Shown here: positions 13,075 to 52,270 of the stretch, one piece after another
Layout: each line of letters opens with the position of its first letter
How positions within the stretch are numbered: the first letter of the stretch is position 1
Assembly: GCA_963674735.2 (NCBI GenBank)
Contig: CAXXQS010000001.1
Span: forward strand, 2,272,001 to 2,336,000
Length of the DNA: 64,000 nucleotides
Reading direction: 5' to 3'
From: Myxococcota bacterium
Lineage (GTDB): Bacteria > Myxococcota_A > SURF-8
Program-made: the position numbers and the translations under genes
Notes under the pieces: generated by a model
The model's database searches: none
Seen by the model: the letters and a program-made list of their open reading frames with translations, nothing else
What the model was told of the DNA's origin: nothing

Positions 13075-13151
13075 GAAACGCGCTCCGCAAGTCGGGCGCG
13101 CGTCATGGAATGGAGTCCTGCGCTCCGACGGCGATATCGTGCAGCATTCGC

Positions 13152-13228
13152 CGGAGCATGGCTCTGTCATGCTCCACATGCTCGTCTAACACCCTATCCG
13201 TTGAAGCATGGTCTCCCGACCTGCTCCA
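13152..13228 (+). repeat. Two REP-like palindromes
   Basis: GGAGCATGGCTCTGTCATGCTCC and GTTGAAGCATGGTCTCCCGACCTGCTCC. Confidence 0.75.
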
Positions 13229-13290
13229 CACGCTTGTCTTATACTTCGTAGTTGTTTTTGTCGTACAGCAAATCTGTCCGACCTACAGGT

Positions 13291-13995
13291 CTATTCTCCA
13301 GCCATTTTCTGTTTTTGGGTGGACGAAATTTGTGGTAGGCGCTTTAACAACTTTTGCGCTCTTTGACGAACAAGCGCACTTGGGTCATTTCCGGCGACTT
13401 TTTGTACAAATTTGCGGTCTTCGCTTGTTGCTAAATGCCATAAGGTGTTGAGGATTTCAATTTTGCGTTCAGCACCTTTATAAAAGGTGTGAAAATGGGC
13501 AACGTCCTTGTTTTCAAACTGCTCAATCAGTAGCGGAACCACCCGGCGATCACCCAATGATGCAAAATACCACGGCACGCACCCAATATTTTTTTCGTAT
13601 TCCAACAACCCTTTAAACGTATCATGTTTGCCGGCATTTTTAATGCCAAAACGCGCCAATATCATGTAGCATTCACTCAAACGTTCCTGCTTATCCAACA
13701 AAATTGAGCATGCTTTTTGAATACGCCCTCTGCGAGGTGATAATCGGTGGTTTTCAATTGTTCTTTCGGCAGTTGGTCCAGCCCATCGGTTAGTTTCATA
13801 ATTACGAACATTGCCTAGGCACCAAAGAAAGGGTGTTTGCCGGTTGTCGGTTTTTCGTATACCAGCAGCAACCTCAAGCGCTTGCACGTAATATTCTTCG
13901 GTATGCAGACATTCACCCGCCCACACAGCACAAGTAAGGGTGATAAGCAACCCAGTAACGGCAGCAAAAAATGGCAATTTAGCTATACTATGCAT
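13291..13995 (-). CDS. Secreted hypothetical protein with a HEAT-like C-terminus (island cargo)
   Basis: Signal-peptide-like MHSIAKLPFFAAVTGLLITLTCAVWA; LGDRRVVPLLIE and NDPSALVRQRAQKLL HEAT-like segments; AT-rich. Confidence 0.6.
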   Translation of the reverse strand: MHSIAKLPFFAAVTGLLITLTCAVWAGECLHTEEYYVQALEVAAGIRKTDNRQTPFLWCLGNVRNYETNRWAGPTAERTIENHRLSPRRGRIQKACSILLDKQERLSECYMILARFGIKNAGKHDTFKGLLEYEKNIGCVPWYFASLGDRRVVPLLIEQFENKDVAHFHTFYKGAERKIEILNTLWHLATSEDRKFVQKVAGNDPSALVRQRAQKLLKRLPQISSTQKQKMAGE

Positions 13996-14113
13996 GGTAA
14001 CGATCCTAAACAAATGAAGCAATAGCCGGGGTGGATCAGGCAAATGTTTACCCGACACATCTATTTCGTCATGTCGCTTTATTAAGAATCGCAATCCGTA
14101 ATCCGGGCGCACA

Positions 14114-14830
14114 TCATGGAATGGAGTCCTGCGCTCCGACGGCGATATCGTGCAGCGGAATCAGAATATCGGCCTTGAAATCCAGCACCCGCTGCATGCT
14201 GTCGTAAGCCTGCCGTGCGTCCAGGTGAACGCCGGGAATGACGCCCGGTCGCCCCTTCGGAAAATTCGCCGCATTGCAGCAATACCCGGTAATCAGCGCC
14301 TTTCCCTTGGCGGTCGGCACGACGATCGACTGCCCGCCCGGCGTGTGGCCCGGTGTGAACAGCACCGAAAGCCCATCGAACAGCGGCGCGTCCCCCTCCA
14401 CGGTTTCGACCTTCACACCGTCGAGAATATCGGGATAGATCCGGTGATCGAGGGGATGCGGATTCTGTAAAAACTCCAGTTCCGCTTTTTGCACATACAC
14501 CGTGGCATTGACGCACAGTTGATCGTTCTCGCAATGATCGTTGTGCAAATGCGTATGGATGATGACCTCCACGTCTTCGGGTTTCCAGCCGATGGAGGCC
14601 AGCGCCTCCTCGAAGGACTGCACCTTGAAACCGTATTGATCTTCCACACCCGGCGGGACAAAGACGTTTTCCAATCCGGTGTCGATCAGGATTTTGCGTG
14701 GACCGCCCAGCAGAGCAAAGACATAGATGGGCAGGTGAATCCGTTCGCCGTAATGCTGCAGGTAAGTCATGACGCCCTGGTCGGTTTCGTTCAATCCCAC
14801 CACCAGAGGCTTGATCGTGTAGTGTGTCAT
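14114..14830 (-). CDS. Metallo-beta-lactamase fold, N-acyl homoserine lactonase family
   Basis: ILIDTG, THLHNDH, TPGHTPG and IPLHD motifs. Confidence 0.88.
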   Translation of the reverse strand: MTHYTIKPLVVGLNETDQGVMTYLQHYGERIHLPIYVFALLGGPRKILIDTGLENVFVPPGVEDQYGFKVQSFEEALASIGWKPEDVEVIIHTHLHNDHCENDQLCVNATVYVQKAELEFLQNPHPLDHRIYPDILDGVKVETVEGDAPLFDGLSVLFTPGHTPGGQSIVVPTAKGKALITGYCCNAANFPKGRPGVIPGVHLDARQAYDSMQRVLDFKADILIPLHDIAVGAQDSIP

Positions 14831-15089
14831 GCTTCGCTCTCTTCTCCCAAAGTCGGTTTCGGTTTCCATTCGTCTGAATTGTAGGCATATTTTCGTTCGT
14901 TGTCGAATTTATCGATCAGCCTCCAGCGAACTCACCTTCGCCTGCGGGAGAAGGCCCGCGCTCCAACGGGGTACTACCATAGTAACCCTCACCCCCGCTT
15001 GAAAAGACCGTTCAAAATGAATTGACGCTTGTTGGTGGGTTGGATAATAATGAGGGGTTAACGATCTTCGAAACCATATTGAGGGACTC

Positions 15090-16682
15090 ATGTTGATCAG
15101 CTGCGATTTTCTCGTTATCGGTTCCGGCCTGGCCGGACTCAATTTCGCCCTTGAAGCCGCCGAGCACGGACACGTCGTCCTTATCACCAAGCGTGATATC
15201 AACGACAGCAACACCAACTACGCACAAGGCGGCATCGCCTCGGTTACCTCGGCCGAAGACTCGTTTGAGTCGCACGTGGAAGACACCCTGACGGCCGGTG
15301 CCGGTTTGTGCCATGAAGACATCGTCAAGCTGTGCGTGGAAAACGGCCCGCAAGCCATCCGGCGGCTGGTCGATCTGGGCGTGGAGTTCACGCGCCGCGA
15401 AGATTCCAGCGAATACGACCTGGGACGCGAGGGAGGCCACACCCAACGCCGCGTGCTGCACGCTCAAGACTTCACCGGACGCGCCGTTCAGCATACGCTG
15501 AGTGAAGCGGTTCGCCATCACGCCAATATCGAAGTCTTCGAGCATCACATCGCCATCGATCTGATCATGAAGCACAAGCTCACCGGCGACCGCCGCGACC
15601 GTGTCTGTCTGGGAGCCTACGCGCTCGACAAGATCGATGGCGGCGTCAAAACCTTTGCGGCCCCGGTGACGATGCTGGCATCGGGCGGTTCGGGCAAGGT
15701 CTACCTGTATACCTCCAATCCCGATGTGGCCACCGGCGACGGCATCGCCATGTCGCATCGCGCCGGTGCGCGGGTGGCCAACATGGAGTTTTATCAGTTC
15801 CATCCCACCTGCCTCTACCACCCGCAGGCCAAATCGTTTCTCATCTCCGAAGCCTTGCGCGGTGAAGGCGGCGTGCTCAAACGCGCCAACGGCCAGCCCT
15901 TTATGAACAAGTATCACGAGATGGGCTCCCTGGCTCCGCGCGATATCGTGGCGCGCGCCATCGACACCGAGTTGAAGTCCTTCGGCGAGGAATATGTCCT
16001 GCTCGACATGTCGGCTCGCGAACCCGATTTCATCCGCAATCGCTTCCCCAATATCCACGCCCGCTGCCTTCAATACGGCATCGATATCGCCACCGAACCG
16101 ATTCCGGTGGTTCCGGCAGCGCATTTCTCCTGCGGCGGGATCGTCACCGACGAATGGGGCCGGACCGATCTGGCGGGTCTGTACGCCTGTGGCGAAGTGG
16201 CCTGCACCGGCTTGCACGGAGCCAATCGCCTGGCCTCCAACAGCCTGCTCGAAGCGGCTTTCTTCTCGCAGCGCGCCGCCCAGGACGCCTGCGCCACCCT
16301 GCACGAGCGCGTCAAGGACAGCTTGCTCAAGTCGGTCCCGCAGTGGGACACCGGACGCGCCGTGTCGCCCGACGAACTGGTCATCGTCTCGCAAACCTGG
16401 GATGAGATTCGCCGCTTCATGTGGAATTTCGTCGGCATCGCCCGCACCGACAATCGCCTGGAGCGTGCGCTCCGCCGCATCAACTTGATTCGCGACGAAA
16501 TCGAGCCTTACTACTGGAAATACTCCCTCACCGCCGATTTCGTCGAGCTGCGCAACATCGCCACCGTCGCGCACCTGATCGTGCGGTCCGCCATCCTGCG
16601 GCGCGAATCCCGTGGCTTGCACTTCAACCTGGATTATCCCGGCGCCGATGATCGCCACTACCGGAAGGATACGGCTATATAA
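15090..16682 (+). CDS. nadB: L-aspartate oxidase
   Basis: GSGLAG, NYAQGGIA, REGGH, QFHPT and GLHGANRLASNSLLE motifs. Confidence 0.96.
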   Translation: MLISCDFLVIGSGLAGLNFALEAAEHGHVVLITKRDINDSNTNYAQGGIASVTSAEDSFESHVEDTLTAGAGLCHEDIVKLCVENGPQAIRRLVDLGVEFTRREDSSEYDLGREGGHTQRRVLHAQDFTGRAVQHTLSEAVRHHANIEVFEHHIAIDLIMKHKLTGDRRDRVCLGAYALDKIDGGVKTFAAPVTMLASGGSGKVYLYTSNPDVATGDGIAMSHRAGARVANMEFYQFHPTCLYHPQAKSFLISEALRGEGGVLKRANGQPFMNKYHEMGSLAPRDIVARAIDTELKSFGEEYVLLDMSAREPDFIRNRFPNIHARCLQYGIDIATEPIPVVPAAHFSCGGIVTDEWGRTDLAGLYACGEVACTGLHGANRLASNSLLEAAFFSQRAAQDACATLHERVKDSLLKSVPQWDTGRAVSPDELVIVSQTWDEIRRFMWNFVGIARTDNRLERALRRINLIRDEIEPYYWKYSLTADFVELRNIATVAHLIVRSAILRRESRGLHFNLDYPGADDRHYRKDTAI

Positions 16683-16703
16683 GCAGAACAATAAGGAGAT
16701 TCC

Positions 16704-18074
16704 ATGTCCCTTCGCCACCAGATCTCGTCAAGCTGGAACGTTCAGGTTTTCTTGGTCGGATTCGTCTTGGTTGCTTCCGCGATTCTTGCTTCTAGTTGCC
16801 AAAGCGATAACGAAACGAATTCCGCCGATGGCGATTCAGAGACGCAAAGCGATGGCGACACGGACGACCCCGCTCCCGACGGCGACGATCCCGATGGCGA
16901 TGCAATGTCCGAACCCTGGCGCAGTGCGATGCTCGACGCGATCGAGGATGGCATCGCATCCGACTGCGAGAACGGCATCTGCCTGGGCGATCTCGTCCAA
17001 CTGATTCCGTCCGAAAACCTGCCGTCGGAAATTACCCCGCAAAACGGCAACGACAACCTGGATGTGGCCGTCTTCGAGGGCCGGGTGTTCGTGGCGTTCC
17101 GCAGTGCGCCCGATCACTTCGCCAGCCCCGACGCGGATATCTGGGTCATGAGTTCCGACGATCTGCTCACTTGGCGTTACGAAGGCCGATTCTCCACGGA
17201 TTTCGATGTACGCGAGCCGCGTCTGCTCAGTTGGAACGGAAAGCTTTTCCTTTACTTCGCCGTCCTGGGCGAATTTATGATCGAATTCACCCCGAAAGGC
17301 ATGATGGCCGCCGAATACCACGGTCCCGACGACTGGAGCGAAGCGGATTGGTTTTACGGCGAGGGCTTCATTCCCTGGCGGGTAAAAGTCATCGACGACA
17401 TTCCCTACATGATCACGTATGTGGGGGGTGAAAACATCTACGATCCGGATGGCGAAGAAATCGAAGTCCACTGGCTCACAACCACCGATGGTTTCAACTG
17501 GACTCCGGTCGTCCCGGATCAACCGGTGGTCATTGTCGGCGGCGCTTCGGAAACGGATTTCGTCTTTCTCGACGACGGCACGCTGTTGGCCGTCAGCCGC
17601 AACGAATCGGGAGACGAATACACCGGTTTCGGCATGAAGATCTGCCGCGCCGAAGCCGACACTCTCGGCGACTGGACCTGCGTGGGCGACCCGAAAAAGT
17701 ACGACTCACCCCTGATGTTCAAACACCGCAACACCGCCTATCTCATCGGACGCCGAAATGTCACGGAAACCGGCAACTTCGATCTCGGCTACAGCGACCG
17801 CACGCTGGAAGATCAGTGGATGGCCTATTCGATCGACTACTGGAAACAACCCAAGCGTTGCGCCCTGTGGCGCGTCAACCCGGATCTGACCGTCGATTTC
17901 CTGCGCGATTTGCCATCGAAGGGTGACACCTGCTTCCCCGGTCTTCTAACGGCAGCCGATGGCAGCTACCGCGTGTTCAATTACACCTCTCCCCTCGACG
18001 GCGAAGACGTCGCCTGGCAAACCGGTCAATTCGGTCACACCCTCATCTATCACATTCTGATGCATCTCGACTGA
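16704..18074 (+). CDS. Lipoprotein with a DGD linker and a sialidase/BNR-like beta-propeller
   Basis: LASSC lipobox; Asp-box-like SSDDLLTW and TTTDGFNW; DVREP motif. Confidence 0.65.
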   Translation: MSLRHQISSSWNVQVFLVGFVLVASAILASSCQSDNETNSADGDSETQSDGDTDDPAPDGDDPDGDAMSEPWRSAMLDAIEDGIASDCENGICLGDLVQLIPSENLPSEITPQNGNDNLDVAVFEGRVFVAFRSAPDHFASPDADIWVMSSDDLLTWRYEGRFSTDFDVREPRLLSWNGKLFLYFAVLGEFMIEFTPKGMMAAEYHGPDDWSEADWFYGEGFIPWRVKVIDDIPYMITYVGGENIYDPDGEEIEVHWLTTTDGFNWTPVVPDQPVVIVGGASETDFVFLDDGTLLAVSRNESGDEYTGFGMKICRAEADTLGDWTCVGDPKKYDSPLMFKHRNTAYLIGRRNVTETGNFDLGYSDRTLEDQWMAYSIDYWKQPKRCALWRVNPDLTVDFLRDLPSKGDTCFPGLLTAADGSYRVFNYTSPLDGEDVAWQTGQFGHTLIYHILMHLD

Positions 18075-18218
18075 AACGGACCATTACAATAATTTAACAA
18101 TTATTCCCTTTCATATTTCAGGCAAACGGGTATAATGGCAATGCGGCTGTCACACCCAAAATGAAATCAGCTTTATTTGTACGTCTAGCATTGGATATTG
18201 CTTGTAAGTGGTCAAACA

Positions 18219-20279
18219 ATGCGGATGAATCACAATCAAATGATCAGACTGTTCAGTCTTCGACCCCGCATTCGAGGGTTTGTGTTTGACCTGTTGGTTT
18301 TGGTCGTCCTCAATCTGATCCTCACACAGCCATCACAGGCCGCCGCTCCGATTCTCAAAGTACGCGGCGACAATCAGTATCCCCCCTATGAATTTGAAGA
18401 AGACGGCCAGCCGACCGGCTACAATCTCGATGTTTTTCGGGCCATCGCCGTCTCGATGGGTTTGAAGGCCGATATTCAGGTGGGGCCATGGAATCAGCTC
18501 CGCGACGATATCGAAAATGGGCGGATCGATGTATTGGCCATGTATCGTTCAATCGAGCGTGATAAACAGGTCGATTTTTCCAGCCCTCATATTCAGGTCT
18601 TTCATTCCTTGTTTGTCAGAAATGGTAGTAAAATTAAATCGATCGACGATTTAATCGATCAATCGGTAATCGTGCAACGAGGCGATATCATGCACGACTA
18701 CCTCCTGCAGCACCGGGTTGCAGGAGAAATCATCCCGGTCGAAAACCCGGTCGATGGGTTGCGCCTGCTCGCCTCCGGCCGCCACGACGCGGCGCTGTTC
18801 GCCAAACTCCAGGCTCTTTACACGATCCGGACTTACGATTTATCGAACCTCCGGTCCGTCGGTCCGGCCATGCTGCCGCGCGATTACTGTTTCGCCGTTC
18901 CGGAAGGACGCCAGGACCTGCTCGACAAACTGAACGAAGGGCTGCGTATCATCGCCGCCACCGGGGAATTGGACCGAATTCGCCATAAGTGGTTCGGCAA
19001 TTACGATAACCATCTCACCGGAGAAGAGGCTGTCCGTTACACGCTTTGGATCGGCATTCCTTTCCTGGCGCTTCTAGGCGCGATCCTGTTCTGGTCCTGG
19101 TCCCTGCGCCGTCAGGTTGCCGAGCGAACACGCGATTTACGCATCGAACTGTGGGAACGCCAGCATGCCGAAGAAGCTCTGCGGCTTAGCGAAAACTGGT
19201 TGGCCACGACGCTCAACAGCGTGGAAGAAGCCGTGATTGCAACCGATGAAAACGGAAACATTACGTTTCTGAACCGCTCGGCCCTGCAACTCACCGGTTG
19301 GGGACTGGACGAGGCAAACGGTCAGAAGCTGGAAAACGTCCTGCATATTCTGCCATCCGACGGAACCGCCCCGCTCAGTTCAATCGCCGAACGAATCATG
19401 GCCGGCGAGGTGAAAGATCTTTTCCCGCCTTTCGCCACTCTTCAAGATCGCACGGGAAATCCGCACCCCATCTCGCTCTCGGCGGCTCCGATTGTGGATG
19501 ATCGCGACCAAACGCTGGGAGCGGTGCTCGCCTGTCGCGATATCAGCGACACCTTGCGCATGGAAGCCCTGCTGCGCCATCAACAGAAACAGGAGGCGTT
19601 GGGCACGATGGCCAGTGGGGTCGCCCACGAAATCAACAACCCCATCAACGTGATCATGAATTACGGTGAATTGATCCGGCAACTGACAAACGAAGGATCC
19701 GAGATCGATGCAAATGCAGTTGAGATCATTACCGAAAGCAAACGCATCGCCACGATTGTCAGCAATCTCCTGGTGTTTGCCCGGCAAGAAGGCGTGGAAC
19801 GCGATGCCCATCCGCTCGACCAAACCATCATTTCCACCACTTCGCTGTTACACCAAATGCTGGAAAAAGATCGTATTTCCCTCGACATCGAGCTTCCCGA
19901 TACGCTTCCCCAAACCGTAATGCAACCCCAACAGATTCAGCAGGTGCTGGTCAACTTGCTGTTGAATGCGCGCGATGCGCTCAATGCGCAATACACACAG
20001 GATCACCCCGATAAACGGATCCTCATCCAAGCCAGACAAACCACCACAAACGGACAACCCGTCGTCATCGTCAGCGTGACCGATTTCGGATGCGGCATTC
20101 CGGCCGATATCCGTTCCCGTATCTTCGATCCTTTCTTCACCACTAAAGGCCGCAACAGCAACCCCGGCCTCGGATTATCGATCAGTCACGGCATCATCAA
20201 AGACCACCAAGGCCGTTTGCTGCTGAGCAGTGAACCGGGCCACACGGTTTTTCTGATCGAGCTACCGGCCGCCGTCTAA
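18219..20279 (+). CDS. Sensor histidine kinase: family 3 solute-binding domain, TM, PAS, kinase
   Basis: YPPYEF binding-domain motif, GVAHEINNP H-box, DFGCGI, FDPFFTTK and GLGL. Start uncertain. Confidence 0.9.
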   Translation: MRMNHNQMIRLFSLRPRIRGFVFDLLVLVVLNLILTQPSQAAAPILKVRGDNQYPPYEFEEDGQPTGYNLDVFRAIAVSMGLKADIQVGPWNQLRDDIENGRIDVLAMYRSIERDKQVDFSSPHIQVFHSLFVRNGSKIKSIDDLIDQSVIVQRGDIMHDYLLQHRVAGEIIPVENPVDGLRLLASGRHDAALFAKLQALYTIRTYDLSNLRSVGPAMLPRDYCFAVPEGRQDLLDKLNEGLRIIAATGELDRIRHKWFGNYDNHLTGEEAVRYTLWIGIPFLALLGAILFWSWSLRRQVAERTRDLRIELWERQHAEEALRLSENWLATTLNSVEEAVIATDENGNITFLNRSALQLTGWGLDEANGQKLENVLHILPSDGTAPLSSIAERIMAGEVKDLFPPFATLQDRTGNPHPISLSAAPIVDDRDQTLGAVLACRDISDTLRMEALLRHQQKQEALGTMASGVAHEINNPINVIMNYGELIRQLTNEGSEIDANAVEIITESKRIATIVSNLLVFARQEGVERDAHPLDQTIISTTSLLHQMLEKDRISLDIELPDTLPQTVMQPQQIQQVLVNLLLNARDALNAQYTQDHPDKRILIQARQTTTNGQPVVIVSVTDFGCGIPADIRSRIFDPFFTTKGRNSNPGLGLSISHGIIKDHQGRLLLSSEPGHTVFLIELPAAV

Positions 20280-20767
20280 CGCCAGTCCGTGCTGTCGCGG
20301 TCAGCGTGTCGGCAGTACTTCCGAATGAATCGGATAGGGGTTGAGAATCACGACGGCTTTCAACCCGGCGACGTCCGCCTCTGATGGCGCTCTCATTCAA
20401 GCATCGATGGCGGGTTAAGTATTTGGTATTCAAGCTGATTCGGGAGGACTTCGCCCCTTGTCGCACACTTCCACAAGTCCAAATGGAATGGATGTACAAG
20501 CATTTAGATCTCATTTAGAGATGACGACGATAACCGGACCGAAAAGGAGAAACGCAAACCGGAAGCCCGGTTTCGTCCGAAAAAATGAACACGATCGCGA
20601 GCGGGTGAGAAGAAAAAACGAAGACGAAAGCGAAACCCTTTTGCGCCCCAACCTTGGCTCGCTCTTGTTTAATCTAATTTTATATTAATTATTTGCATTT
20701 ATATCTTAATTTAATATAATATTACTGCGATTTGATTAAGTTTGAATGGGCAGAAAGGACGTATTCC

Positions 20768-22276: not shown

Positions 22277-22587
22277 CGCATCGGACAAGCGAATCGCATT
22301 CGGATCGCCCTCCCTTGGCTCGCCCATCTCGAAAAACCGCCCCCGTGCGTCCCGAAATCGGGAATGTCGCGCCTCTCTGTGAAGTCTAACAAGATGTGAC
22401 CGCCACGGATGCACCATTCGGACATCCACCCAGAGGACACCGCCGACCCTTCTCGGCTCTTTGAAGATTCCGAAATTTGCCTTTCATGCCGAACGGAACT
22501 CACGTCTTGGCGCGAATGAAAGTGAATGAATCCGCCGAGCCATGCGTCTAATAAATCGGTCCTCTGAAACCATTAGGAGACTTCACC

Positions 22588-24024: not shown

Positions 24025-24048
24025 GAAGGGAAAAAGGTCAGGCGGGGT

Positions 24049-24534
24049 TTAATCCGGTTGCGCGGTTTCGGCCAACGATTCGTCGAACGGAGGCGAAATA
24101 ATCGCCTTCGGTCGCACGAACCAACCATACAGTTTGCAACCCAAGCAGAAATTCACCCCGGCTTCAAGCGCCGCAAAAGCCATGAGATTTCCTAAAACGA
24201 CTTGCCACATCCACCCATTTCCAAACAGCAGCAGCACCATGACAATCGAACTCATCGAAAAACCGAGAATTCCGGCAAAACGTTTCGGGGCGGCATTGAT
24301 CCGGATATCTTTCACGGCAAAGAGGGATAGCAGCGCGTCGCTCAAACGCATTGACAGGCTGTAGCGCGGCTTGTTCAGCACATCACGCAGCAGAAAATCC
24401 GAAATGAGGATGACGCCGAACCATGGCTCGGCCGTGGCCAACCAGGTAGACGCCAGCGCCACCACCCACAAGGCGTTGAGACGCGCTCGATATTCCCCGG
24501 TAAAATCAGACGAGATCGGGCAATGCGCCGGCAT
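24049..24534 (-). CDS. DUF4395 family membrane protein
   Basis: ARLNA, PKRFA and LEAGVNFCLGCKLY motifs. Confidence 0.8.
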   Translation of the reverse strand: MPAHCPISSDFTGEYRARLNALWVVALASTWLATAEPWFGVILISDFLLRDVLNKPRYSLSMRLSDALLSLFAVKDIRINAAPKRFAGILGFSMSSIVMVLLLFGNGWMWQVVLGNLMAFAALEAGVNFCLGCKLYGWFVRPKAIISPPFDESLAETAQPD

Positions 24535-24690
24535 ATTCGCCTCCTGCGACAGTCTGTCGAATGTACAGACTATTTCCTACACTGATCCGGTCGATTCAAC
24601 GAACCGACATTCTAATTAGAAACAATGTCAGCCCGATTTATTTCATCGATTTCAAGTAGGAAAGGCAAGACCGCCCGGAATGGAGGTCGG

Positions 24691-24716
24691 GCTGGAGCGC
24701 GTCTCCGACGGGTTTC
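24691..24716 (+). repeat. Degenerate REP-like element
   Basis: GCTGGAGCGCGTCTCCGACGGGTTTC matches the copies at 26134, 38877, 52180 and 63558. Confidence 0.65.
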
Positions 24717-24965
24717 TCGCCAAGCGCAAAGAAATCATGCCCCCGATCGAATGGCTGTTTCCGTATCGTGGCCACTCGCACTTAGCGCCATCACCCAACA
24801 AGATATCTGAAACCTTCCATAATAAAACAAGGTATTATAGGATTCAGGTAGCATCAATCAATCGGAACCCCGCCGCTGATCGGAACAGCCCCCCGGGGTC
24901 GGACTTCGCATGTCACTTGGATCGGATGGCTTTTCAATTCGATATCCATCCGAAAGGAGAGAATC

Positions 24966-25853: not shown

Positions 25854-25922
25854 GGGCGGGCGCATCAACCGTGGACTGCATCGCTCAAGTGATTTCTCGC
25901 AGCGAAATTGGTCCGGGCGGGC

Positions 25923-25994: not shown

Positions 25995-26021
25995 TGGAGA
26001 ACTCCTGATAAAGTGCATCTC

Positions 26022-26133
26022 ATGGAAAAGTACAGAAGAAAGAACAAGCACTATAACGATCCGGGTCATGTGCATGAATTGACGTTTTCCTGTTATCGCT
26101 GTTTACCGCTATTGAAAAATGAGCGTTCCCCGT
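26022..26133 (+). pseudogene. N-terminal fragment of a REP-associated tyrosine transposase (RAYT/Y1)
   Basis: MEKYRRKNKHYNDPGHVHELTFSCYRCLPLL resembles the RAYT N-terminus. Similarity ends at the REP at 26134, before any HUH motif. Confidence 0.7.
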
Positions 26134-26160
26134 GTTGGAGCGCGTCTGCGACGGGCTCCA
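26134..26160 (+). repeat. REP-like palindrome
   Basis: GTTGGAGCGCGTCTGCGACGGGCTCCA. Confidence 0.75.
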
Positions 26161-26951
26161 GGCTTTCCGTCCGTTTTTCGCTCCCTGCGCCGTTGTGGCA
26201 ATTGGCCGTGACACACGAACTTCGTCGATTCGACAAAATCGAGTGGACAGGCCTAATTTTTGCCGCTTTACCGGGTGCAGATCGTTTTTCGCTCAAAGCG
26301 CTCGCTGCGCCGTTTAACGGGAGCCGTTTTCGCTTTTCGCGAAATCATTGGGTTTTTCGGCCTCAAATCGAGGGGTAAAGTAGCAATCCACGGGAAATAC
26401 TAGGTTGGGCGTAATACGTCACATCGATGCAGCCGGGGAGCGTGCGTTTCGCGGTCGGCTCCCAGCCCGGAAACGTGAAGCCATTCGCCGTTGTATAACT
26501 GTTTCGCTTGTGTTCTCAGTATGTTAAGCGCCACTCGAAGAATTTCGAATCGGGCGAATACACCCGCTGCGGAGGCTCGAAAAACGCGATTGGCCCCTGG
26601 ACCTATAGTATACTAAATATAATATATATAATATCCTCATGTTATGAACAACGAAACAGCTGATATCACAGGGAAATCCGGAAACCAGCCGGACAGAGTC
26701 GAACTAGCATCGAAAAATACGGACGAAACACATCATTTTCACTGTAATACCATCTACTTGCAAAGGTGGTGGCGAGAAAAGGAGGACCTTTTCGTCGTCT
26801 TTTCCCTTGGCTCAACCCCGGAGATGGGACGGCCGCCGTCTGCGGGACGTAGCAAGGGCGGTTTGAGCCGCCTGTCGGTCTGGTGGACCAAGCTTGGCAG
26901 CGTGCCGAAGCGCATTGAAAAGGGAATTCCCAAACCCGCTCCGCCCGCTTG

Positions 26952-38658: not shown

Positions 38659-38729
38659 TAAAACGTCAACTCGCCGGATGGTCATCGCCTCCGGCGGGTC
38701 GCTCTTTTCTTCGAAAACCACCCCTTACG

Positions 38730-38904
38730 CAAGAGCAGGGCTCCCGTCCTGCTCTTGTTGGTTGTCTTGAAATCGCGCTGACGGGCGAATCCCCCGAAGA
38801 TATCAGGAAAGACAAATGAATGGAGCATGACAGAGGCATGCTCCAACCCAAAATCCATGCTGGAGCGCCTCCCCATGCTGGAGCGCGTCTCAGACGGGCT
38901 CCAG
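38730..38904. repeat. Cluster of three REP-like palindromes in alternating orientation
   Basis: CAAGAGCAGGGCTCCCGTCCTGCTCTTG (38730), TGGAGCATGACAGAGGCATGCTCCAAC (38821) and GCTGGAGCGCGTCTCAGACGGGCTCCAG (38877). Confidence 0.75.
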
Positions 38905-39712: not shown

Positions 39713-39749
39713 ACGACGCACTACACGGTCGGACACGAAAGGAAACACC

Positions 39750-40412: not shown

Positions 40413-40422
40413 GGAGGGCGGC

Positions 40423-41097: not shown

Positions 41098-41179
41098 TAT
41101 CGCCTGCGTCGACCCAACCCCGACCCGCCGCCGACGCCTCTCAGCGCTTCACCAATGGCGGCGGTATTGATGGAAACGC

Positions 41180-43537: not shown

Positions 43538-43567
43538 GTTTACCCGCTCAACACACAGGACAAAACC

Positions 43568-44893: not shown

Positions 44894-44925
44894 CGGAATC
44901 TATTCACTGGATTTTCGAGGCGTCC

Positions 44926-46377
44926 GTGCGGTTACTTCTACTTCCATATCTATTGATTGCCCTGCTGATCTCCATCTCTTCATTATGGGCTGCCGATCCC
45001 GAATTGCCGCAGATTTCGGCCCTTACGGCCATCCAGGACGGCCCGCGTATTCAGGTTCGCATTCTGGCCAGCCAGCGACCGGTTTTTTCCAGCTACCAGC
45101 TATCCGACCCTGAACGACTGGTCATCGATTTTCCCCAGATGCAACTAGCTCCGCAAGTGGGACCGCCTCCCCTGCGTTCCGTCCTGATCGACCGTCTATC
45201 GCTTGAAGCCCCCACGGATTTCGATAACTTGGTACGCTTGGTGATCTGGCTGCGCGCCCCCGCCGACTACCGTATGGAGCAGCAGAACGGCTCCCTGGTT
45301 ATCATCCTGGAACCGCTTCCCGGTTCGCCGCTGCTGGCGCTGAATGCCCCCCAAACATCGCAGAAAACCGGACAATCCGAAACACCGACCACGGTGGCAG
45401 CCACCTTGCAAGCGGAACGGGAAGACGCCGAGCGAAAACGCCTGGAAGCAGAACGCCGTCAACGCGAAATCGCCGAGCAGAAACGCCTGGAAGCAGAACG
45501 CCGTCAACGCGAAATCGCCGAGCAGAAACGCCTGGAAGCAGAACGTCGTCAGCGCGAAATCGCCGAACAGAAACGCCTGGAAGCAGAACGCCGTCAGCGC
45601 GAAATCGCCGAACAGAAACGCCTGGAAGCAGAACGTCGCCAGCGCGAAATCGCCGAGCAGAAACGCCTGGAAGCAGAACGTCGCCAGCGCGAAATCGCCG
45701 AGCAGAAACGCCTGGAAGAGGAACGTCGCCAGCGCGAAATCGCCGAGCAGAAACGCCTGGAAGAGGAACGTCGCCAGCGCGAAATCGCCGAACAGAAACG
45801 CCTGGAGGAAGAACGTCGTCTGCGCGAAATCGCCCAGCAAAAACGCTTGGAAGAAGAGCGCCGTCAACGTGAGGAAGCCAAGAAAAAAAGGCTGGAAGAG
45901 GAGCGCCAAAAACGCGAAAACGCCCAGCGCGAACGCATGCAGGCGGAAGTCGAACGGGCCAAGAAAGCCGAACGAAATCGGCAGAATGAGTTGGCCAAGC
46001 GCAAGAACCTCAAAGTTACCAAGTTGCACCCCGCCAGCGGACCGGCCACCCTGCGCTTCGTCGGTTTTCATCCGCAAAACGGCGGCGCGCGCGTCAGTGT
46101 CACATTCAACCGTACCGCGAATATGACCACCCAATGGGTGGACACGCATACCGCCCGTTTCATCTTCGCTCCAGCTCGCGTGGTCAACCGCATGAACCTG
46201 CTTCCCCTGCAAACGGCGGCATTCAACACGCCGGTCGAATCGGTGCAACCCGACTGGAATCCGCTGGATCAGACGGTCAGCCTGACCGTGCACCTCTCTT
46301 CCCAGGCGCAATTCAGCGTACAACGCCATGATTTTCGTATCGATATTCTCTTCGAACCCGTGAGTGGACAGCCCTGA
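44926..46377 (+). CDS. Secreted AMIN-domain protein with a long E/R/K repeat spacer
   Basis: Probable GTG start and signal peptide; LSDPERLVIDF AMIN motif; 15-aa repeats; C-terminal AMIN-like beta domain. Confidence 0.75.
   Translation: MRLLLLPYLLIALLISISSLWAADPELPQISALTAIQDGPRIQVRILASQRPVFSSYQLSDPERLVIDFPQMQLAPQVGPPPLRSVLIDRLSLEAPTDFDNLVRLVIWLRAPADYRMEQQNGSLVIILEPLPGSPLLALNAPQTSQKTGQSETPTTVAATLQAEREDAERKRLEAERRQREIAEQKRLEAERRQREIAEQKRLEAERRQREIAEQKRLEAERRQREIAEQKRLEAERRQREIAEQKRLEAERRQREIAEQKRLEEERRQREIAEQKRLEEERRQREIAEQKRLEEERRLREIAQQKRLEEERRQREEAKKKRLEEERQKRENAQRERMQAEVERAKKAERNRQNELAKRKNLKVTKLHPASGPATLRFVGFHPQNGGARVSVTFNRTANMTTQWVDTHTARFIFAPARVVNRMNLLPLQTAAFNTPVESVQPDWNPLDQTVSLTVHLSSQAQFSVQRHDFRIDILFEPVSGQP
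45436..45885 (+). repeat. 45-bp coding tandem repeat (KRLEAERRQREIAEQ), 9 copies plus a degenerate tenth
   Basis: Units start at 45436, 45481, 45526 ... 45841. Confidence 0.95.
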
Positions 46378-46458
46378 ACACGCTAAAAGGACTTGCCAAA
46401 ATCGTGCCTCGCCGTTAGATTAGGGCGATTTGCACTGTTCAATAGAACCGAGGTTGGG

Positions 46459-49317
46459 ATGTTAAAAAAGATTTCAGAAGCCATTTTCGGCACTCAGCAC
46501 GAGCGCGAGATCAAGCGCTTGCAGCCGTATGTCGATCAGATCAACGGTCTGGAAGACGGCATCAAAGCCAAGTCGGACGACGAACTGCGTGCGCGCATCG
46601 GTGAATTTCGCCAACAGGTCGAAAACGCGGTCAAAGGCTACAGCGACCATGCCGATCGCCGCAAACGCGAAGAAGATATCCTCGCAACCCTGTTGCCGGA
46701 AACCTTCGCCATCGTGCGCGAAGCCGGTATCCGCAGCCTGGGTATGCGCCACTACGACGTCCAGCTCATCGGCGGCATGGTCCTTCACGGCGGCCGCATC
46801 TCCGAGATGCGCACCGGTGAAGGTAAAACCCTGGTCGCCACCCTGCCCTTGGTACTCAACGCCCTTACCGGGCGCGGCGTGCATTTGGTCACGGTCAACG
46901 ATTACCTGGCCCGACGCGACTCGGAATGGATGGGACGCATCTACAAATACCTGGGATTTTCGGTGGGGCTGGTGGTGCACGGGATCAACACCCGCAAACG
47001 CCGCGAGTCTTACGCCAGCGACATCCTGTACGGAACCAACAACGAGTTCGGGTTCGACTACCTGCGCGACAACATGAAGTTCCGCCTCTCCGATTACGTC
47101 CAACGCGACCTGCATTATGCCATCGTGGATGAGGTCGATTCCATCCTGATCGACGAAGCCCGTACCCCGTTGATCATCTCCGGCCAGGCCGAAGACTCGA
47201 CCGAGAAATACAATCAGGTCAATGCCGTCATCAAAAACCTGGTCAAGCTCGGTTTGACGGAAGGCCGAAAACGCGCCGCCAAGGCCGATGTTTCCATCGA
47301 AGAAGTCGTGGAAAAAGAAGGCGGCCTGCGGGCCATCGCCTCGCAGCTCAAAGGCCGCAAGAAGAAAGACCTCGCGGGCGACTACTATTTCTTCACCATC
47401 GACGAGAAGGGCCGCAACATCATCTTGTCGGATGAGGGCGTGGCCTGGGTGGAAGAGCATTTCAACGTGGAGAACCTCTACGAACCGCAGAATATCGAAC
47501 TGCTGCACCACGTCAATCAGGGTTTACGCGCCCACCTGCTGTACCGCGTCGAGCAGGAATACATCGTCAAGGACGATAAGGTGGTCATCGTCGACGAATT
47601 CACCGGCCGCCTTATGCCCGGCCGCCGCTGGTCCGACGGGTTGCATCAGGCCGTGGAAGCCAAAGAAGGCGTCCAGATCCAGAACGAAAACCAGACACTG
47701 GCCTCCATCACCTTCCAGAACTTCTTCCGCATGTACGACAAGCTGGCCGGTATGACCGGTACGGCGGAAACCGAGGCCAACGAATTCAAGCAGATCTACG
47801 GGCTCAACGTCGCGGTGATTCCCACCGACAAACCCATGATCCGCCAAGATCACACCGATATGGTGTACCGCACGGTCAAAGAAAAATACACATCCGTGGT
47901 GGAAGAGATTGCCGAAGTCAGCAAACGAGGACAGCCGGTGCTGGTGGGCACGATCAGCATCGAGAATTCGGAAAAACTCTCACGCATGCTCAAGCGCCGG
48001 GGCGTCAAGCACAACGTACTCAACGCCAAGTTCCATGAAAAAGAAGCGGAAATCGTCGCCCAAGCCGGCCGCAAAGGCGCGGTCACGATCGCAACCAACA
48101 TGGCGGGTCGCGGTACCGATATCGTCTTGGGCGGCAACCCCGAATTCATGGCCTGGCAACAAGTCGGCACCGATGCCGAGCTGGATGAATTCCAGGCGGC
48201 TCTCGATGAGTACACCAAGAAATGCAAGGCGGAAAAGGAATTCGTGCTCGAAGCGGGCGGCCTGCACATTCTCGGTACCGAACGCCACGAATCGCGCCGC
48301 ATCGACAACCAGTTGCGTGGCCGTTCGGGACGCCAGGGCGATCCCGGAAGTTCACGTTTTTACCTGTCGCTCGAAGATGATCTGATGCGCATCTTCGGTG
48401 GCGAGCGGATCATGGCCATCATGAACCGCTTGGGGATCGAAGAGGGACAGGTTATTCAGCACGGCATGATCACCCGCGCCATCGAGAAATCGCAGATGCG
48501 TGTGGAAGCGCACAACTTCGATATCCGCAAAAACCTGCTCGATTACGATACCGTGATGAACGAGCAACGGACCGTTACCTACCGCACGCGCCGCGAAATT
48601 CTCGAAGGCACGGAACAAGAAGAACGCGCGCTCACCGCCATCGAAGACGTGGTGATCTCCATCGTCGGCGAAACCTGCCAGGGAACGGCCGAAAAATGGG
48701 AGATCGACCGCCTGCTCGATAGTATCAAACATTACTTCAATATGGATTACGACCTGGAGTTCGATCCCAAAAGCGCCCCGCCGCTGGAGAAGCTTCAGGA
48801 AAACATCTACTTCGCCGCCGAAAAAGAATATCGGGAAAAGGTGAAGAATATCGCCGCCCTGTTCAACGACGACGGCGACAACTGGCGGCGCATGGAACGC
48901 GAGCTGCATCTCCAGATTCTCGACAAACACTGGCGCGAGCACCTGTTGCAAATGGATCACCTGAAAGAAGGCATCAGCCTGCGCGGCTATGGTTCGCGCG
49001 ATCCCAAGCAGGAATACAAAAAAGAAGGCTTTGCCATGTTCGAGGATTTGCTTGACCGCATTTCCTTCGAATTCATCCAATACGTCTTCCGTATCCAGAT
49101 CCAGGCCGAAGAAGAACTGACGCGCCTGCGCGAAAAGCAGGAAGCCGAACAAGAACGCCGTCGCATGACCTACGAACGCGGCGAGTCTCGTAAAAAGCCG
49201 GAAACCGTCCAACGCACCGTGCAGAAGATCGGTCGCAACGACCCCTGCCCCTGCGGGTCGGGTAAGAAATTCAAAAAATGCCATTGGGGCCAGGCCGGCT
49301 TCGAACGGTTTATGTAA
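46459..49317 (+). CDS. secA: Preprotein translocase ATPase SecA
   Basis: [42 protein letters not shown] and [22 protein letters not shown] motifs. Confidence 0.98.
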
Positions 49318-49327
49318 GGAGCGATCC

Positions 49328-50101
49328 ATGGATCAGCCCACCCTTCCCCCTCTCTCGTATTTTTACCGCTACCTGTGGGAAGATCCCGAGCTTATGGTGG
49401 TGGTCGGCGACGCCGGGGAACTGTTTCGCGGAATGGATATCTATAACCGCCATTTCGGCATCGCTCCGGTTGACGACGCCGACGCCCGTGATTTCAAACG
49501 CCTGCTGACGGCGGCGGGGCTGGCGGCGGTTTCCTTGAGCGATCGCGAAAGCTGGGGCTGGAATCTCAGCCTGCCCGACCGACAGATGGGGTTTTTCGTG
49601 GCAGCCGAACCGGAAGGCATGTTATGCGGTTGTCTCCATCCCACCACGCGTAAGCAACAACTCGGTTTCGTCCAGCGCCAGAAAGCCGGTGAGGACCTGA
49701 CCCAGAGTCACTTCACCCCGCAGGGCTCCGACGTCGTTCACGCCGTCGAACGCTATTTCGTCGAATGCGAACAGGTGCAGGTGCGCGTCGCCGCCAATGA
49801 ACAAGGCCTAGGTGCATTGGTGCGCGCCATGCCGGGCGGTCGGCTGGACGAATTGGCCTCTCTTTCCGATGACGAACTGATCGAACGCTGCCGCAAACTG
49901 GCCAAAGACGGCGAAATGAAGGGAATGGGCGAGGTTTTGTTGTTTTACGAATGCCGTTGCGACGACGAGATGATCCTCAGCATGATCACGAACCTGCCCG
50001 CCGACCAGCGCGAAGAACTGTGGCGCGGTCAAGATGCGTTGCACATCGAATGCCCCCGCTGCGGACGCGGCTATACCATGAAAAAGCAGGGATTGAATTA
50101 G
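49328..50101 (+). CDS. hslO: Hsp33-family redox chaperone (divergent)
   Basis: C-terminal ECRC...CPRC zinc motif and RYFVECEQ segment. Confidence 0.75.
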   Translation: MDQPTLPPLSYFYRYLWEDPELMVVVGDAGELFRGMDIYNRHFGIAPVDDADARDFKRLLTAAGLAAVSLSDRESWGWNLSLPDRQMGFFVAAEPEGMLCGCLHPTTRKQQLGFVQRQKAGEDLTQSHFTPQGSDVVHAVERYFVECEQVQVRVAANEQGLGALVRAMPGGRLDELASLSDDELIERCRKLAKDGEMKGMGEVLLFYECRCDDEMILSMITNLPADQREELWRGQDALHIECPRCGRGYTMKKQGLN

Positions 50102-50108
50102 GAAGCGG

Positions 50109-50225
50109 TCAGCGTTTCTTGCGAGGTTTGCTCGGCTCTCCTTCCCCGCGCAGACTGATAAGCACCACGCCGGTGAGAGAGAAGAAAAACGCAATTGCCG
50201 CCAATAGCTGGATCCACGTGGACAT
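50109..50225 (-). CDS. 38-aa single-TM small protein
   Basis: MSTWIQLLAAIAFFFSLTGVVLISLRGEGEPSKPRKKR, with a strong AAAGGAG RBS; absent from the ORF track. Confidence 0.6.
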   Translation of the reverse strand: MSTWIQLLAAIAFFFSLTGVVLISLRGEGEPSKPRKKR

Positions 50226-50502
50226 GATAGGCCACTCCTTTCCCCTCTTGTCTAGCGCGTTGGATGAAGCAGGTCAAGTTATTAACCCAACCCGCGGTTT
50301 CCTTGTATACTGCTCTCCCGAGTGATTCCACGAAACGAAATCATATAGAAGGCTCCCTCGATACGCCGTTTGTCAAACGGCAACACGGAGATGAACGTTT
50401 TCTGTAGCTTTCATTGGGAGAGCTTGCTTTTAGAACATAGCGGATGACAACTTATCCGAGCTACTCCTTTACAGCTCCAGCGAATAATTTCACACGGGAC
50501 AA

Positions 50503-50532
50503 TTGACTTTCGCCGCTAATCGTTTTAATAAT
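50503..50532 (+). promoter_or_regulatory. Sigma70-like promoter upstream of the tmRNA-like gene
   Basis: TTGACT followed 17 nt later by TAATAAT. Confidence 0.5.
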
Positions 50533-50556
50533 AACATGATTACGGTTCTATGGCAT

Positions 50557-50677
50557 GGGGGCGACAGGGCTTCGACGGGGTGCAGCTATCGCCTGGATAT
50601 AGATACATTCTTCAGATAGCTAGCCTGACGTTGCGCCGCACAAGCGGTGTTAGGTTCGATTCCCCCCGCCTCCACCA
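50557..50677 (+). ncRNA. Miniature or internally deleted tmRNA-like gene (tRNA-like ends only)
   Basis: 5' GGGGGCGACAGGGCTTCGACGGGG and 3' GGTTCGATTCCCCCCGCCTCCACCA. They form a 7-bp acceptor stem with a G3-U wobble and encoded ACCA. Only 121 nt long; T-stem only 2 bp. Confidence 0.75.
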
Positions 50678-50781
50678 TTTTATGTTTATGATTTCAACAA
50701 CTTATGACTCTCACCTAGAAGCAGTGCCCAAATAGTGCCTAACTAAATTTGATGTTATCCTGCATGGAGGTCACTTTAATA

Positions 50782-51444
50782 ATGACATCTAAAAGCAATA
50801 TTTGGGTCGCTTCAATAGTTTGTTTTGTTATTACTTTGGCGATATATATTTCTTTGAATGGCTATCTAAATACAAAATACCCTAATGATAAATGGGCTAC
50901 GGCCATTCTTGAAATAGTGTCTTCGCTTGGTGTATATACCATAATTTTTCATCTGTACTTGTTTATCTACGAGAAGTACCTATTTGTAATGATTGATAAA
51001 AGATTTGACATGACAGGCGAGTGGTTTCAGGTATTTATCATTAAGAACCCCGCAGATGGGGTGGCATCAATTCGTCACGGTTATTGTTCGATTAAAGCTT
51101 CACCTAATGGAATAAATCTTTCGGCAGAGAATTATAGACCTGATGACACCTTTAGTTCAAACTGGCAGTCGGAAGTCACTACCATTATTAACAATCAACT
51201 ATATGTAATGTTTGTGTCACAGGGCAACAGGCCCACAAACCCAATAACAAGAGGAACAATGGTTTTTAATATTCATGGGTGTCCTCCAAATCGGCTAATT
51301 GGTACTTTTAATGATTCAACACCTGCAACCCATTCGGGAGAAATCCGTATATTTCGTGAGTATGATGAATATTGTCAATACTTAAATAGTTTTCAGGTCG
51401 ATGGGGTTCCAGATATACCTAGCAGGCTAGATCAAGGCGAATGA
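50782..51444 (+). CDS. 2-TM + beta-rich protein resembling Cap15/SMODS-associating 2TM-beta effectors
   Basis: Two N-terminal TM helices, DMTGEW after TM2, beta-strand-rich C-terminus ending LIGTF...SGEIRIFR; GGAGG RBS; AT-rich. Confidence 0.6.
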   Translation: MTSKSNIWVASIVCFVITLAIYISLNGYLNTKYPNDKWATAILEIVSSLGVYTIIFHLYLFIYEKYLFVMIDKRFDMTGEWFQVFIIKNPADGVASIRHGYCSIKASPNGINLSAENYRPDDTFSSNWQSEVTTIINNQLYVMFVSQGNRPTNPITRGTMVFNIHGCPPNRLIGTFNDSTPATHSGEIRIFREYDEYCQYLNSFQVDGVPDIPSRLDQGE

Positions 51445-51445
51445 T

Positions 51446-52027
51446 ATGTATTTTTTTGAATATGCAAAGAGTTTTCTCTACAGGATGCTATTGAAAAGAA
51501 AGCATACCTTTATAAATCCTACCGCAATAATACTTAATGTAAAAAAAATAGATATCGGTTCCAACGTGATAGTGGGCAGACATGCTTTTATTAGGGGAGG
51601 TCAAGATCCGTCAAGCCATCTTAAAATTGGTGATAATGTAGTAATTAGAATGAATACGTACTTAAGTTCCAGGCATGGGGATCTATCCATCGGTAAAAAC
51701 ACCTATTTTGCTCACTCCTGTTGGCTTGGAGGGCAAGGAACCACAACCATCGGAATGAACTGCTTGTTTGGTCCTAATGTTGTGTCAATCTCTTCCAACC
51801 ATGATTATAATAATATTTCAACTCCCTATCACAAAGGGGATGAACTTCCAGGTGTAATCACAATTGGGGATAATGTATGGATTGGAGCAAATGCAGTAAT
51901 ATTACCCAATGTAAAAATAGGAAATGGAGCAGTTATCGGTGCCGGATCTGTAGTAACCAGTGATGTACCAGCGAGAACTCTTTTTGTTGGTAACCCAGCT
52001 ATATTCCAGAAAAATCTACGTTCCTAA
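51446..52027 (+). CDS. Left-handed beta-helix (hexapeptide) acyltransferase
   Basis: IGDNV repeats, SSNHD, IGDNVWIGANAVILPNVKIG and GAGSVVTSDVP...GNPA motifs. Confidence 0.92.
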   Translation: MYFFEYAKSFLYRMLLKRKHTFINPTAIILNVKKIDIGSNVIVGRHAFIRGGQDPSSHLKIGDNVVIRMNTYLSSRHGDLSIGKNTYFAHSCWLGGQGTTTIGMNCLFGPNVVSISSNHDYNNISTPYHKGDELPGVITIGDNVWIGANAVILPNVKIGNGAVIGAGSVVTSDVPARTLFVGNPAIFQKNLRS

Positions 52028-52179
52028 TTGCAGTTTAATAGTCCTTGAGAGACCCGTTTTTTCAATGGGTAAAGGCTGTTAACTATATTATACGAAATTC
52101 ACCCATCCAACCCCTTGACCGCATCCCGTTTGACCTCCGGGGCCAAGTGCATGTACCGCATTGTAGCCGGGTAGCGACG

Positions 52180-52206
52180 TGGAGCCCGTCGGAGACGCGC
52201 TCCAAC
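52180..52206 (-). repeat. REP-like palindrome abutting the right direct repeat
   Basis: Minus strand reads GTTGGAGCGCGTCTCCGACGGGCTCCA. Confidence 0.8.
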
Positions 52207-52270
52207 ACGATTTCATGAAATGAAATCGCATCGAAGGCTGCCTCGATACGCCGTTTAACCGGATTCCCAT

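Follow-up and report, generated by a model that had tools for sequence, protein, structure and literature searches.

Two loci in one bacterial genome raise the question of whether short palindromic repeats can guide the capture of foreign genes. Both lie in a stretch of 64,000 nucleotides (nt) from a Myxococcota bacterium, hereafter called the window, which corresponds to positions 2272001-2336000 of contig C1 (CAXXQS010000001.1) in assembly G000 (GCA_963674735.2). The prefixes C1 and C2 denote contigs of this assembly, and unprefixed coordinates are window positions. Each locus combines a direct repeat, hairpins of the repetitive extragenic palindromic (REP) type and one or two cargo genes. 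The original prediction treated the pair as one recurrent architecture, in which REP-associated tyrosine transposases (RAYTs), enzymes of the HUH class, capture foreign DNA at a REP and duplicate about 45 bp of arbitrary target. The answer favoured here is a different one: on balance, the two loci are probably unrelated pieces of decayed, horizontally acquired DNA lying beside resident repeats. One would be the relic of an island that targets ssrA, the gene for transfer-messenger RNA (tmRNA), the other an islet left by one-sided recombination, and the REPs would not have served as capture guides.

Several of the features described before are present. The geometry of the two loci is mirrored as reported: in each, the REP lies downstream of its cargo, beside one repeat copy. 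The cargo is foreign in composition, as its low-GC interiors confirm: the GC content of the window is mostly 0.55-0.60, and falls to 0.446 at 13501-14000 and to 0.386-0.396 at 50501-52000. The hairpins, which all fold as single-stranded DNA (z -1.8 to -2.7), do not represent a single REP. They belong to three different families, REP2 and REP3 at locus 1 and REP1 at locus 2. Nor do the two loci share one architecture, since locus 2 is read as an ssrA-island relic and locus 1 as an islet at the 3' end of a gene.

Judged from its sequence, locus 2 (50318-52259) is the integrase-proximal end of an ssrA-targeting island. The first line of evidence is a pseudo-tmRNA on the plus strand (50557..50677), which spans both ends of ssrA and in which 77 nt replace 326 positions of the Rfam model (RF00023, 30.1 bits, E 2e-10, below the gathering score of 47). 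It emerged solely at a permissive E-value threshold; ARAGORN and Rfam at gathering thresholds returned no RNA in the window. The sole real tmRNA gene of the genome is located at C1:607260-607611, and the pseudo-tmRNA matches it in blocks of 44/47, 40/44 and 39/44 nt (89-94% identical) that reach beyond the gene by about 20 nt on either side, upstream of the mature 5' end and past the CCA end. At the DNA level, 50496-50583 and 50653-50742 align to the two flanks of real ssrA, starting on the promoter side at 50496 and reaching 50742 on the 3' side. Because the coding middle of ssrA and half of its T-stem are gone, 50557-50677 is read as a pseudogene.

The second line of evidence lies at the opposite end of the locus, where the minus strand holds the last 20 codons and the stop codon of a tyrosine integrase (52099..52161). 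Over 19 amino acids (aa), the residues encoded by 52102-52161 match the C-terminal end of the integrase beside real ssrA at 89% identity, and 52104-52164 matches C1:605540-605480 at 83.9% at the DNA level. The earlier statement that neither locus contains an integrase or transposase stands for locus 1 and fails for locus 2, which encodes the final 20 residues of one. At the real locus, ssrA is followed by a 541-aa DUF4062-HAD gene and then by a convergent gene for a 354-aa tyrosine integrase (Phage_integrase 7.4e-30). About 32 kb from ssrA, 25 nt of the ssrA 3' end recur without a mismatch (C1:575496-575520), and the end of a second integrase gene is only 3 nt away. This indicates tandem ssrA islands, and the genome holds several tyrosine integrases in all. 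The layout of locus 2 would accordingly be that of ssrA, a short island arm, a variable cargo slot and a convergent tyrosine integrase. No second copy of the ssrA 3' end was found near locus 2, and the way in which the module may have reached its site can only be inferred.

Comparable arrangements were seen in related genomes. In G003, which belongs to a related genus, a GNAT gene comes after ssrA and is itself succeeded by a convergent tyrosine integrase gene, and in G002 the region upstream of ssrA contains an integrase remnant and an AAA_15 gene. The succession of ssrA, cargo and integrase is absent at the ssrA genes of G004 and G008. Within the genome itself, the module in the window (module A) has a paralogue, B, at C1:379149-380568, which shares 50353-50600 at 89.5% identity and 52101-52209 at 90%. 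Paralogue B has the identical first internal deletion in its pseudo-ssrA and the identical cut in its integrase gene, the two integrase remnants being 85% identical, and carries a different cargo, an AbiJ_NTD4 / PDC-S32 gene.

The slot between the 3' flank of ssrA and the stop codon of the convergent integrase gene holds a different small cargo in each copy (C1:604484-607611, C1:574393-575520, C1:379149-380568, locus 2 and G003). These cargoes include DUF4062-HAD, AbiJ/PDC-S32, a Cap15-like protein with an acyltransferase and, in the relative, GNAT. As at least one slot cargo matches a defence-system model, the slot beside the island integrase may be a hotspot for defence genes. The cargo of locus 2 consists of two genes on the plus strand. 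The first (50749..51444) encodes a 231-aa membrane protein with no Pfam or PADLOC match; the proteins most like it by a protein language model have Cap15_CD_rec (score 0.97), no more than a lead towards a possibly Cap15-like protein. The second (51446..52027) encodes a hexapeptide-repeat acyltransferase (Pfam Hexapep 2.3e-21). Beyond the locus follows a native gene for a xylose isomerase-like TIM barrel protein (52315..53121, plus strand; Pfam AP_endonuc_2 1.1e-23).

The direct repeat of locus 2 does not have the properties of a target duplication. The 48-nt pair reported before (50324-50371 and 52209-52256) exists, with 41/48 positions identical (85%). Its first copy is part of a full-length element, here called R (50318..50401, plus strand), whose outer edge is the left edge of the homology with paralogue B. 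The second copy is part of a partial R (52208..52259, plus strand) that retains only the 5' 50-60 nt and is abutted by the REP1 hairpin (52180..52206), which ends just before the repeat copy and forms the right edge of the homology with paralogue B. A search with 50300-50420 as query returned 18 matches in the genome at the first nhmmer pass and 34 after iteration, with examples at C2:1065925, C2:856235 and C1:775355; further copies occur in other genera of the order. Since both copies of repeat 2 are dispersed R elements, repeat 2 is not a target duplication. The claim that some 45 bp of arbitrary target had been duplicated fails on this 34-match family and, at locus 1, on the mosaic repeat described below.

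The R unit measures about 85-110 nt and has three short hairpins with a few compensatory changes, as judged by eye in the alignment, and no Rfam family corresponds to it. REP1 often abuts the 5' side of R at other sites as well, at variable positions. Two further interpretations of R were tried and rejected. As a structured RNA it gave a weak RNAalifold result on 15 copies (-3.5), whose consensus disagreed with the local hairpins. Nor does R mark mini-islands, in that low-GC DNA follows only 2 of the 19 best copies, namely those of modules A and B.

Locus 1 (13072-14156) is an islet of 937 nt that contains a REP cluster and a single ORFan gene. It lies between two native genes, one for a 586-aa putative Ig-domain protein (11314..13074, plus strand; Pfam He_PIG 3.8e-09) and one for a protein of the metallo-beta-lactamase (MBL) fold (14114..14869, minus strand; Pfam Lactamase_B 6.5e-14). 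The perfect 43-nt repeat described before (13103-13145 and 14114-14156) is present, but it is only the right part of a repeat of 74 nt in which 66/74 positions are identical (89%; 13072-13145 versus 14083-14156). All eight mismatches fall in the first 31 nt, which are non-coding, and none in the last 43 nt, which are coding; the chance of such a split is about 0.001 by a hand estimate, (31/74)^8. The left edge of the repeat is the stop codon of the upstream gene and the right edge lies 43 nt inside the convergent MBL-fold gene. Copy a (13072..13145) is composed of the native 28-nt spacer after the stop codon and the displaced last 43 nt of the MBL-fold gene. Copy b (14083..14156) is composed of a diverged, homeologous 31-nt spacer and the functional last 43 nt of that gene, whose 3' end it forms. 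A fresh duplication by fill-in should be uniform, so the mosaic of repeat 1 does not fit this origin.

Between the two copies follow two REP2-type hairpins, one REP3 and the ORFan gene on the minus strand. The first hairpin, REP2 (13153..13175; DNA fold z -2.7), is found after copy a as reported, although at 7 nt past the repeat rather than 6. The second, REP2-like hairpin is located at 13203-13227 (DNA fold z -2.0), and REP3 (13260..13286, plus strand) ends just ahead of the stop codon of the cargo gene. This gene (13291..13995, minus strand) is made of low-GC DNA and encodes a 234-aa protein with an N-terminal hydrophobic stretch. No Pfam family scored above cut-off, DUF5691 being the only one below it (0.002); no relative turned up in the order's 9 other genomes, and a large protein collection returned only the protein itself. 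The cargo of either locus is single-copy in the genome, and the recurring parts are the ends of locus 2 alone.

Read support for locus 1 was evaluated in Logan contigs of three runs from one study, ignoring joints with short sides (22-32 nt). The contig depth of the insert was 8.2 and 12.1, with flanks at 8.8/13.8 on one side and 6.7/11.6 on the other, and the 43-nt node of repeat 1 had double depth (16 and 28). A direct connection of 13145 to 14157 was present in none of the contigs; since a de Bruijn graph is unable to trace this path across a repeat of 43 nt, the result carries no information on excision. An insert depth equal to that of the flanks, together with a doubled 43-nt node, indicates that the structure of locus 1 is not an assembly artefact.

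For locus 1, homology-facilitated illegitimate recombination is proposed. Native sequence would have been replaced by a tract that came from a relative and comprised the REP cluster, the cargo, the relative's spacer and the 3' end of the relative's MBL-fold gene. Two joins would have been needed, a homologous crossover within the MBL-fold gene and an illegitimate one 43 nt in from its 3' end. The 74-nt repeat would then consist of the displaced native 3' end and the donor's homeologous copy, and would not be the footprint of a transposase. Integration of a circle by a single crossover would yield the identical product. Other genomes of this family and order also have REP3-like matches, so that a relative could have been the donor. 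Repeats that are nearly identical next to the gene and diverged in their outer part are also seen at C1:839184-840266 and at C2:460878-462992. The latter is a low-GC islet of 2 kb that carries a PD-T4-2-like pair (GmrSD_N/NsnA 2.9e-67 and RiboL-PSP HEPN), has no recombinase and lies between copies of a 113-nt repeat by which the adjacent gene regains its 3' end. The position of its REP1 inside the diverged outer part of the repeat indicates that this REP predates the event.

Reconstruction of a gene 3' end is also what classical site-specific integration would produce, and both loci might be relics of that process. Locus 1 would in that case be an integrase-less, cis-mobilizable element bounded by 74-nt attachment (att) sites, attL and attR, with the element-borne copy replacing the 3' end of the MBL-fold gene and the integrase acting in trans or since deleted. 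The perfect 43-nt core of repeat 1 agrees with this, a like logic is seen at C2:460932 (59 nt, 97%) and at C1:1559073, and the genome does have its several tyrosine integrases and its ssrA islands in tandem. For ssrA islands, PMC3146451 discusses elements that lack an integrase and are bounded by att repeats. Against it, a search by open reading frames (ORFs) and Pfam found no integrase remnant or recombinase in the 937-nt insert. Moreover, the similarity continues at about 74% past the core into non-coding DNA and at C2:460878 includes a homologous REP1, which suggests an arm from a relative's chromosome and not an attP borne by an element. The 3' end of the MBL-fold gene is repeated in 0/70 metagenomic loci that have a homologue of it, which argues against a dedicated att site. 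Site-specific integration is consequently held to be an unlikely origin of the two loci.

Errors of local replication offer another route to flanking repeats. REP hairpins would stall replication forks, template switching would duplicate their flanks in tandem, and later deletions would leave a single insert. Duplications of this kind can be found in the genome: at C2:64501 a REP cluster of 233 nt is duplicated, one copy holding a 165-aa ORF and the second lacking cargo, with breakpoints 8 nt from REP2 and in the loop of REP3, and a tandem duplication of 107 nt is present at the 3' end of a RAYT gene (C1:277190-277400). Tandem REPIN clusters that include their flanks are likewise described in PMC3116915. 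This explanation leaves unaccounted why the spacer part of repeat 1 alone has diverged by 26%, and does not cover the repeats of locus 2, which are R elements. It is regarded as very improbable.

The part played by the REPs themselves was evaluated from their distribution and from the RAYT genes. REP1 is the commonest family, with 62 copies at no more than 4 mismatches against 1.3 for shuffled motifs; REP2 has 16 copies at the same threshold against 0 for shuffled motifs, and REP3 occupies 12 loci. Depending on the mismatch threshold, the copies per family number 10-83. The genome has five Y1-family matches, two of the IS200 type and three RAYT-like. The intact RAYT that the original prediction proposed to look for was found three times over, and two of those scanned with NF047646 pass its cut-off of 80 bits: C1:276717-277253 (178 aa, 192 bits) and C2:553309-553839 (176 aa, 84.9 bits). 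The third RAYT-like gene lies at C2:350140-350490. Inverted pairs of REP3, their cognate REP, flank the RAYT genes at C1:276756-277121 and C2:350140-350490, and REP2 copies at C2:552695 and C2:553893, one of them about 170 nt away, bracket the RAYT-like gene at C2:553561. No REP1 was found within 1.5 kb of the three RAYT-like genes in this assembly, which is 94% complete and may therefore lack a gene. The REPs are the host's own REP/RAYT elements, which gather in non-coding 3' junctions; they probably act as hotspots of breakage and duplication and not as guides of capture.

Some further arrangements of these elements were recorded. Direct repeats of 377 nt (98%) of an intergenic region enclose a RAYT gene together with its inverted REP3 pair at C2:349582-350985, and the RAYT copy at C1:276646-277400 is the one whose 3' end is duplicated in tandem. 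An IS110-family element (DEDD_Tnp_IS110, 81 bits for each copy) is present in eight identical copies that lie next to REP1 (C1:43865, 316592, 2102685 and 2611891; C2:305270, 322403, 501690 and 1073557); the presence of REP1 on both sides of several of them suggests that the element inserts into REP1. Three more REP1 copies in the window (24684-24718, 26127-26161 and 38870-38904) have no local direct repeat beside them in the genome-wide scan described below. Local repeats do lie near 7/12 REP3 loci, the seventh being the 107-nt tandem duplication. Two of these seven are arrays of orphan RHS-type toxin cassettes (C1:785000-790200 and C2:39000-43200), in which REP3 lies inside arrays of RHS-type core fragments with low-GC cassettes and the repeats are gene fragments. 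It is the translated core motif that suggests orphan toxin/immunity-like modules for these cassettes. The window also contains long in-frame tandem repeats in coding sequence at 45283-46038, 60929-61341 and 57940-58059, with periods of 45 nt (12 times), 12 nt (more than 20 times, encoding repeats of the Asp-Gly-Asp-Thr type) and 15 nt.

The whole genome was scanned for local direct repeats of at least 35 nt with copies 150-8000 nt apart, and of the 657 pairs obtained, 88 have no further copy in the genome. The counts of intergenic regions and of two-copy islets that follow rest on crude, ORF-based gene calls, and the former are uncorrected for the length of the regions or for convergent genes around them. 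The enrichment of duplications beside REPs that the original prediction had anticipated was borne out, in that a non-REP local direct repeat is found in 10/72 intergenic regions with a REP or R against 46/2242 without (odds ratio 7.7, Fisher p 5e-6). Low-GC islets have a REP or R near their boundary in 21/343 cases, against 6.6 ± 2.7 under random placement; because this null model ignores coding sequence, it was replaced by the table of intergenic regions. When a low-GC islet is defined as a two-copy pair enclosing DNA with a GC content at least 0.08 lower than that of its flanks, seven are obtained. The four with a REP or R at the junction are locus 1, an islet whose IS4-family transposase is found once more in the genome, the RAYT gene with its REP3 pair and the duplicated REP cluster. 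Two of the seven have no REP within kilobases. Across the islets the REP lies variously in the insert, in the duplicated stretch or outside both, or is absent. Part of the signal is covered by tandem REPIN clusters with their flanks, which are known from PMC3116915. The association of REP ends with the junctions of inserts and duplications is real in this genome.

Five points weigh against the favoured interpretation. First, a REP or R lies no more than 15 nt from the junction of insert and repeat in 4/7 low-GC islets and in 0/81 other pairs, which exceeds the role of a pure bystander. Second, the homology between module A and paralogue B has the outer edges of R and REP1 as its exact limits and yet surrounds different cargo, for which the interpretation does not account. 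Third, neither a donor nor an empty site was found in 41 genomes of relatives and the 80 best metagenomic loci with an MBL homologue, where the closest DNA identity was 77%, MBL homologues reached at most 67% protein identity and the flanking genes were non-syntenic; the route proposed for locus 1 is accordingly conjectural. Fourth, repeat 1 begins precisely at the upstream stop codon, which the model allows and does not require. Fifth, the 0/43 differences in the coding part of repeat 1 are barely compatible with a donor whose spacer is 26% different (p about 0.07, a rough estimate).

An active role of the REPs would account for part of this pattern. REP hairpins and RAYTs would build integrase-less mini-islands by nicks or breaks at the foot of a REP that join foreign or homeologous DNA, and the same event would leave duplications of 40-380 nt spanning the whole 3' intergenic stretch. 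Such a process would explain the proximity of REPs to junctions in 4/7 islets, the RAYT gene between 377-nt repeats and the R and REP1 bounds of locus 2. Taken as a whole, joining and duplication together, it is judged distinctly unlikely.

In its original and stronger form, the RAYT would nick single-stranded DNA at a REP, foreign DNA would be joined there, and repair of the staggered break would duplicate 40-350 nt of arbitrary target with no integrase involved. The three RAYT genes, the junction counts and the enrichment of repeats beside REPs speak for it, as do the REP types of locus 1, which are those that flank RAYT genes, and the distances of the junctions, 7 nt from REP2 at locus 1 (13146) and 2-4 nt from REP3 (C2:349958 and C2:350610) around the RAYT gene with 377-nt repeats. 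To the two loci for which it was proposed, however, this mechanism is a poor fit: locus 2 has its integrase remnant, its pseudo-ssrA and a repeat that is a 34-copy element, and locus 1 has a repeat that is mosaic rather than uniform. The REPs are one-sided, at the left end only in locus 1 and at the right end only in locus 2, and the unit is not bounded by hairpins at both ends. REP1 lacks a RAYT nearby and adjoins the eight IS110-family copies instead, and the cargo is single-copy. Among the four islets adjacent to REPs, one holds an IS4-family transposase, one is a RAYT unit and one a duplicated REP cluster, and two of the seven islets lack a nearby REP altogether. Transposition by Y1 HUH enzymes is not known to make a target duplication, which also counts against capture by a RAYT. 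The probability that RAYT-guided capture formed the two loci is therefore considered very low.

If the conservative interpretation holds, namely unrelated decayed DNA beside resident repeats, the finding is an ordinary one, in which decayed islands, a pseudo-tmRNA and resident repeats mimic a new mobile architecture. Calling an island integrase-free then requires a search for remnants. What is documented is a small, variable cargo slot between ssrA and the island integrase, with different genes in each copy. The association of REP ends with junctions is real and unexplained, and merits a comparative study with genomes of the same species.

Among known systems, the closest to locus 2 are the genomic islands of Dehalococcoides (ssrA-GIs). 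As described in PMC3146451, these are tandem islands at the 3' end of a single-copy ssrA whose far boundary repeats the ssrA 3' end, with an integration gene adjoining attL, variable cargo and integrase-less remnants. The ssrA array of the present genome, with its 25-nt copy of the ssrA 3' end 32 kb away beside a second integrase, resembles them. It differs in using a tyrosine integrase, where the Dehalococcoides islands have the serine recombinase DsiB. Locus 2 departs further, being ectopic at 1.7 Mb from real ssrA, retaining the ssrA 5' end and promoter flank as a pseudogene, and having an integrase of 20 codons and no distal ssrA repeat.

In Pseudomonas fluorescens SBW25, REPINs are tandemly repeated together with their flanks, according to Bertels and Rainey (2011; PMC3116915). 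The parts of the literature drawn on contained no link of REPINs to foreign-gene capture or to long target duplications. The elements described here share with the REP/REPIN-RAYT system the form of short extragenic palindromes, the inverted REP3 pairs that flank RAYT genes and the tandem clusters that include flanks (C2:64501 and C2:349582). They are unlike it in that at least three REP families coexist, REP1 is found without a RAYT nearby and copy numbers are low (10-83).

Target-site duplications of known transposases measure 2-15 bp. The loci resemble such insertions in that direct repeats flank an insert, and differ in that the repeats measure 48-377 nt, repeat 1 is mosaic and repeat 2 is multi-copy. 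Homology-facilitated illegitimate recombination, the process proposed for locus 1, was reportedly first worked out in Acinetobacter and pneumococcus. It joins DNA by homology at one end and illegitimately at the other, as set out in PMC3240628. Locus 1 is similar in having an insert without a recombinase and a mosaic anchor gene, the process here being inferred from its product alone. It is unlike the usual outcome in that the join lies inside the 3' end of the anchor gene, where a stub of 43 nt has been left as a repeat.

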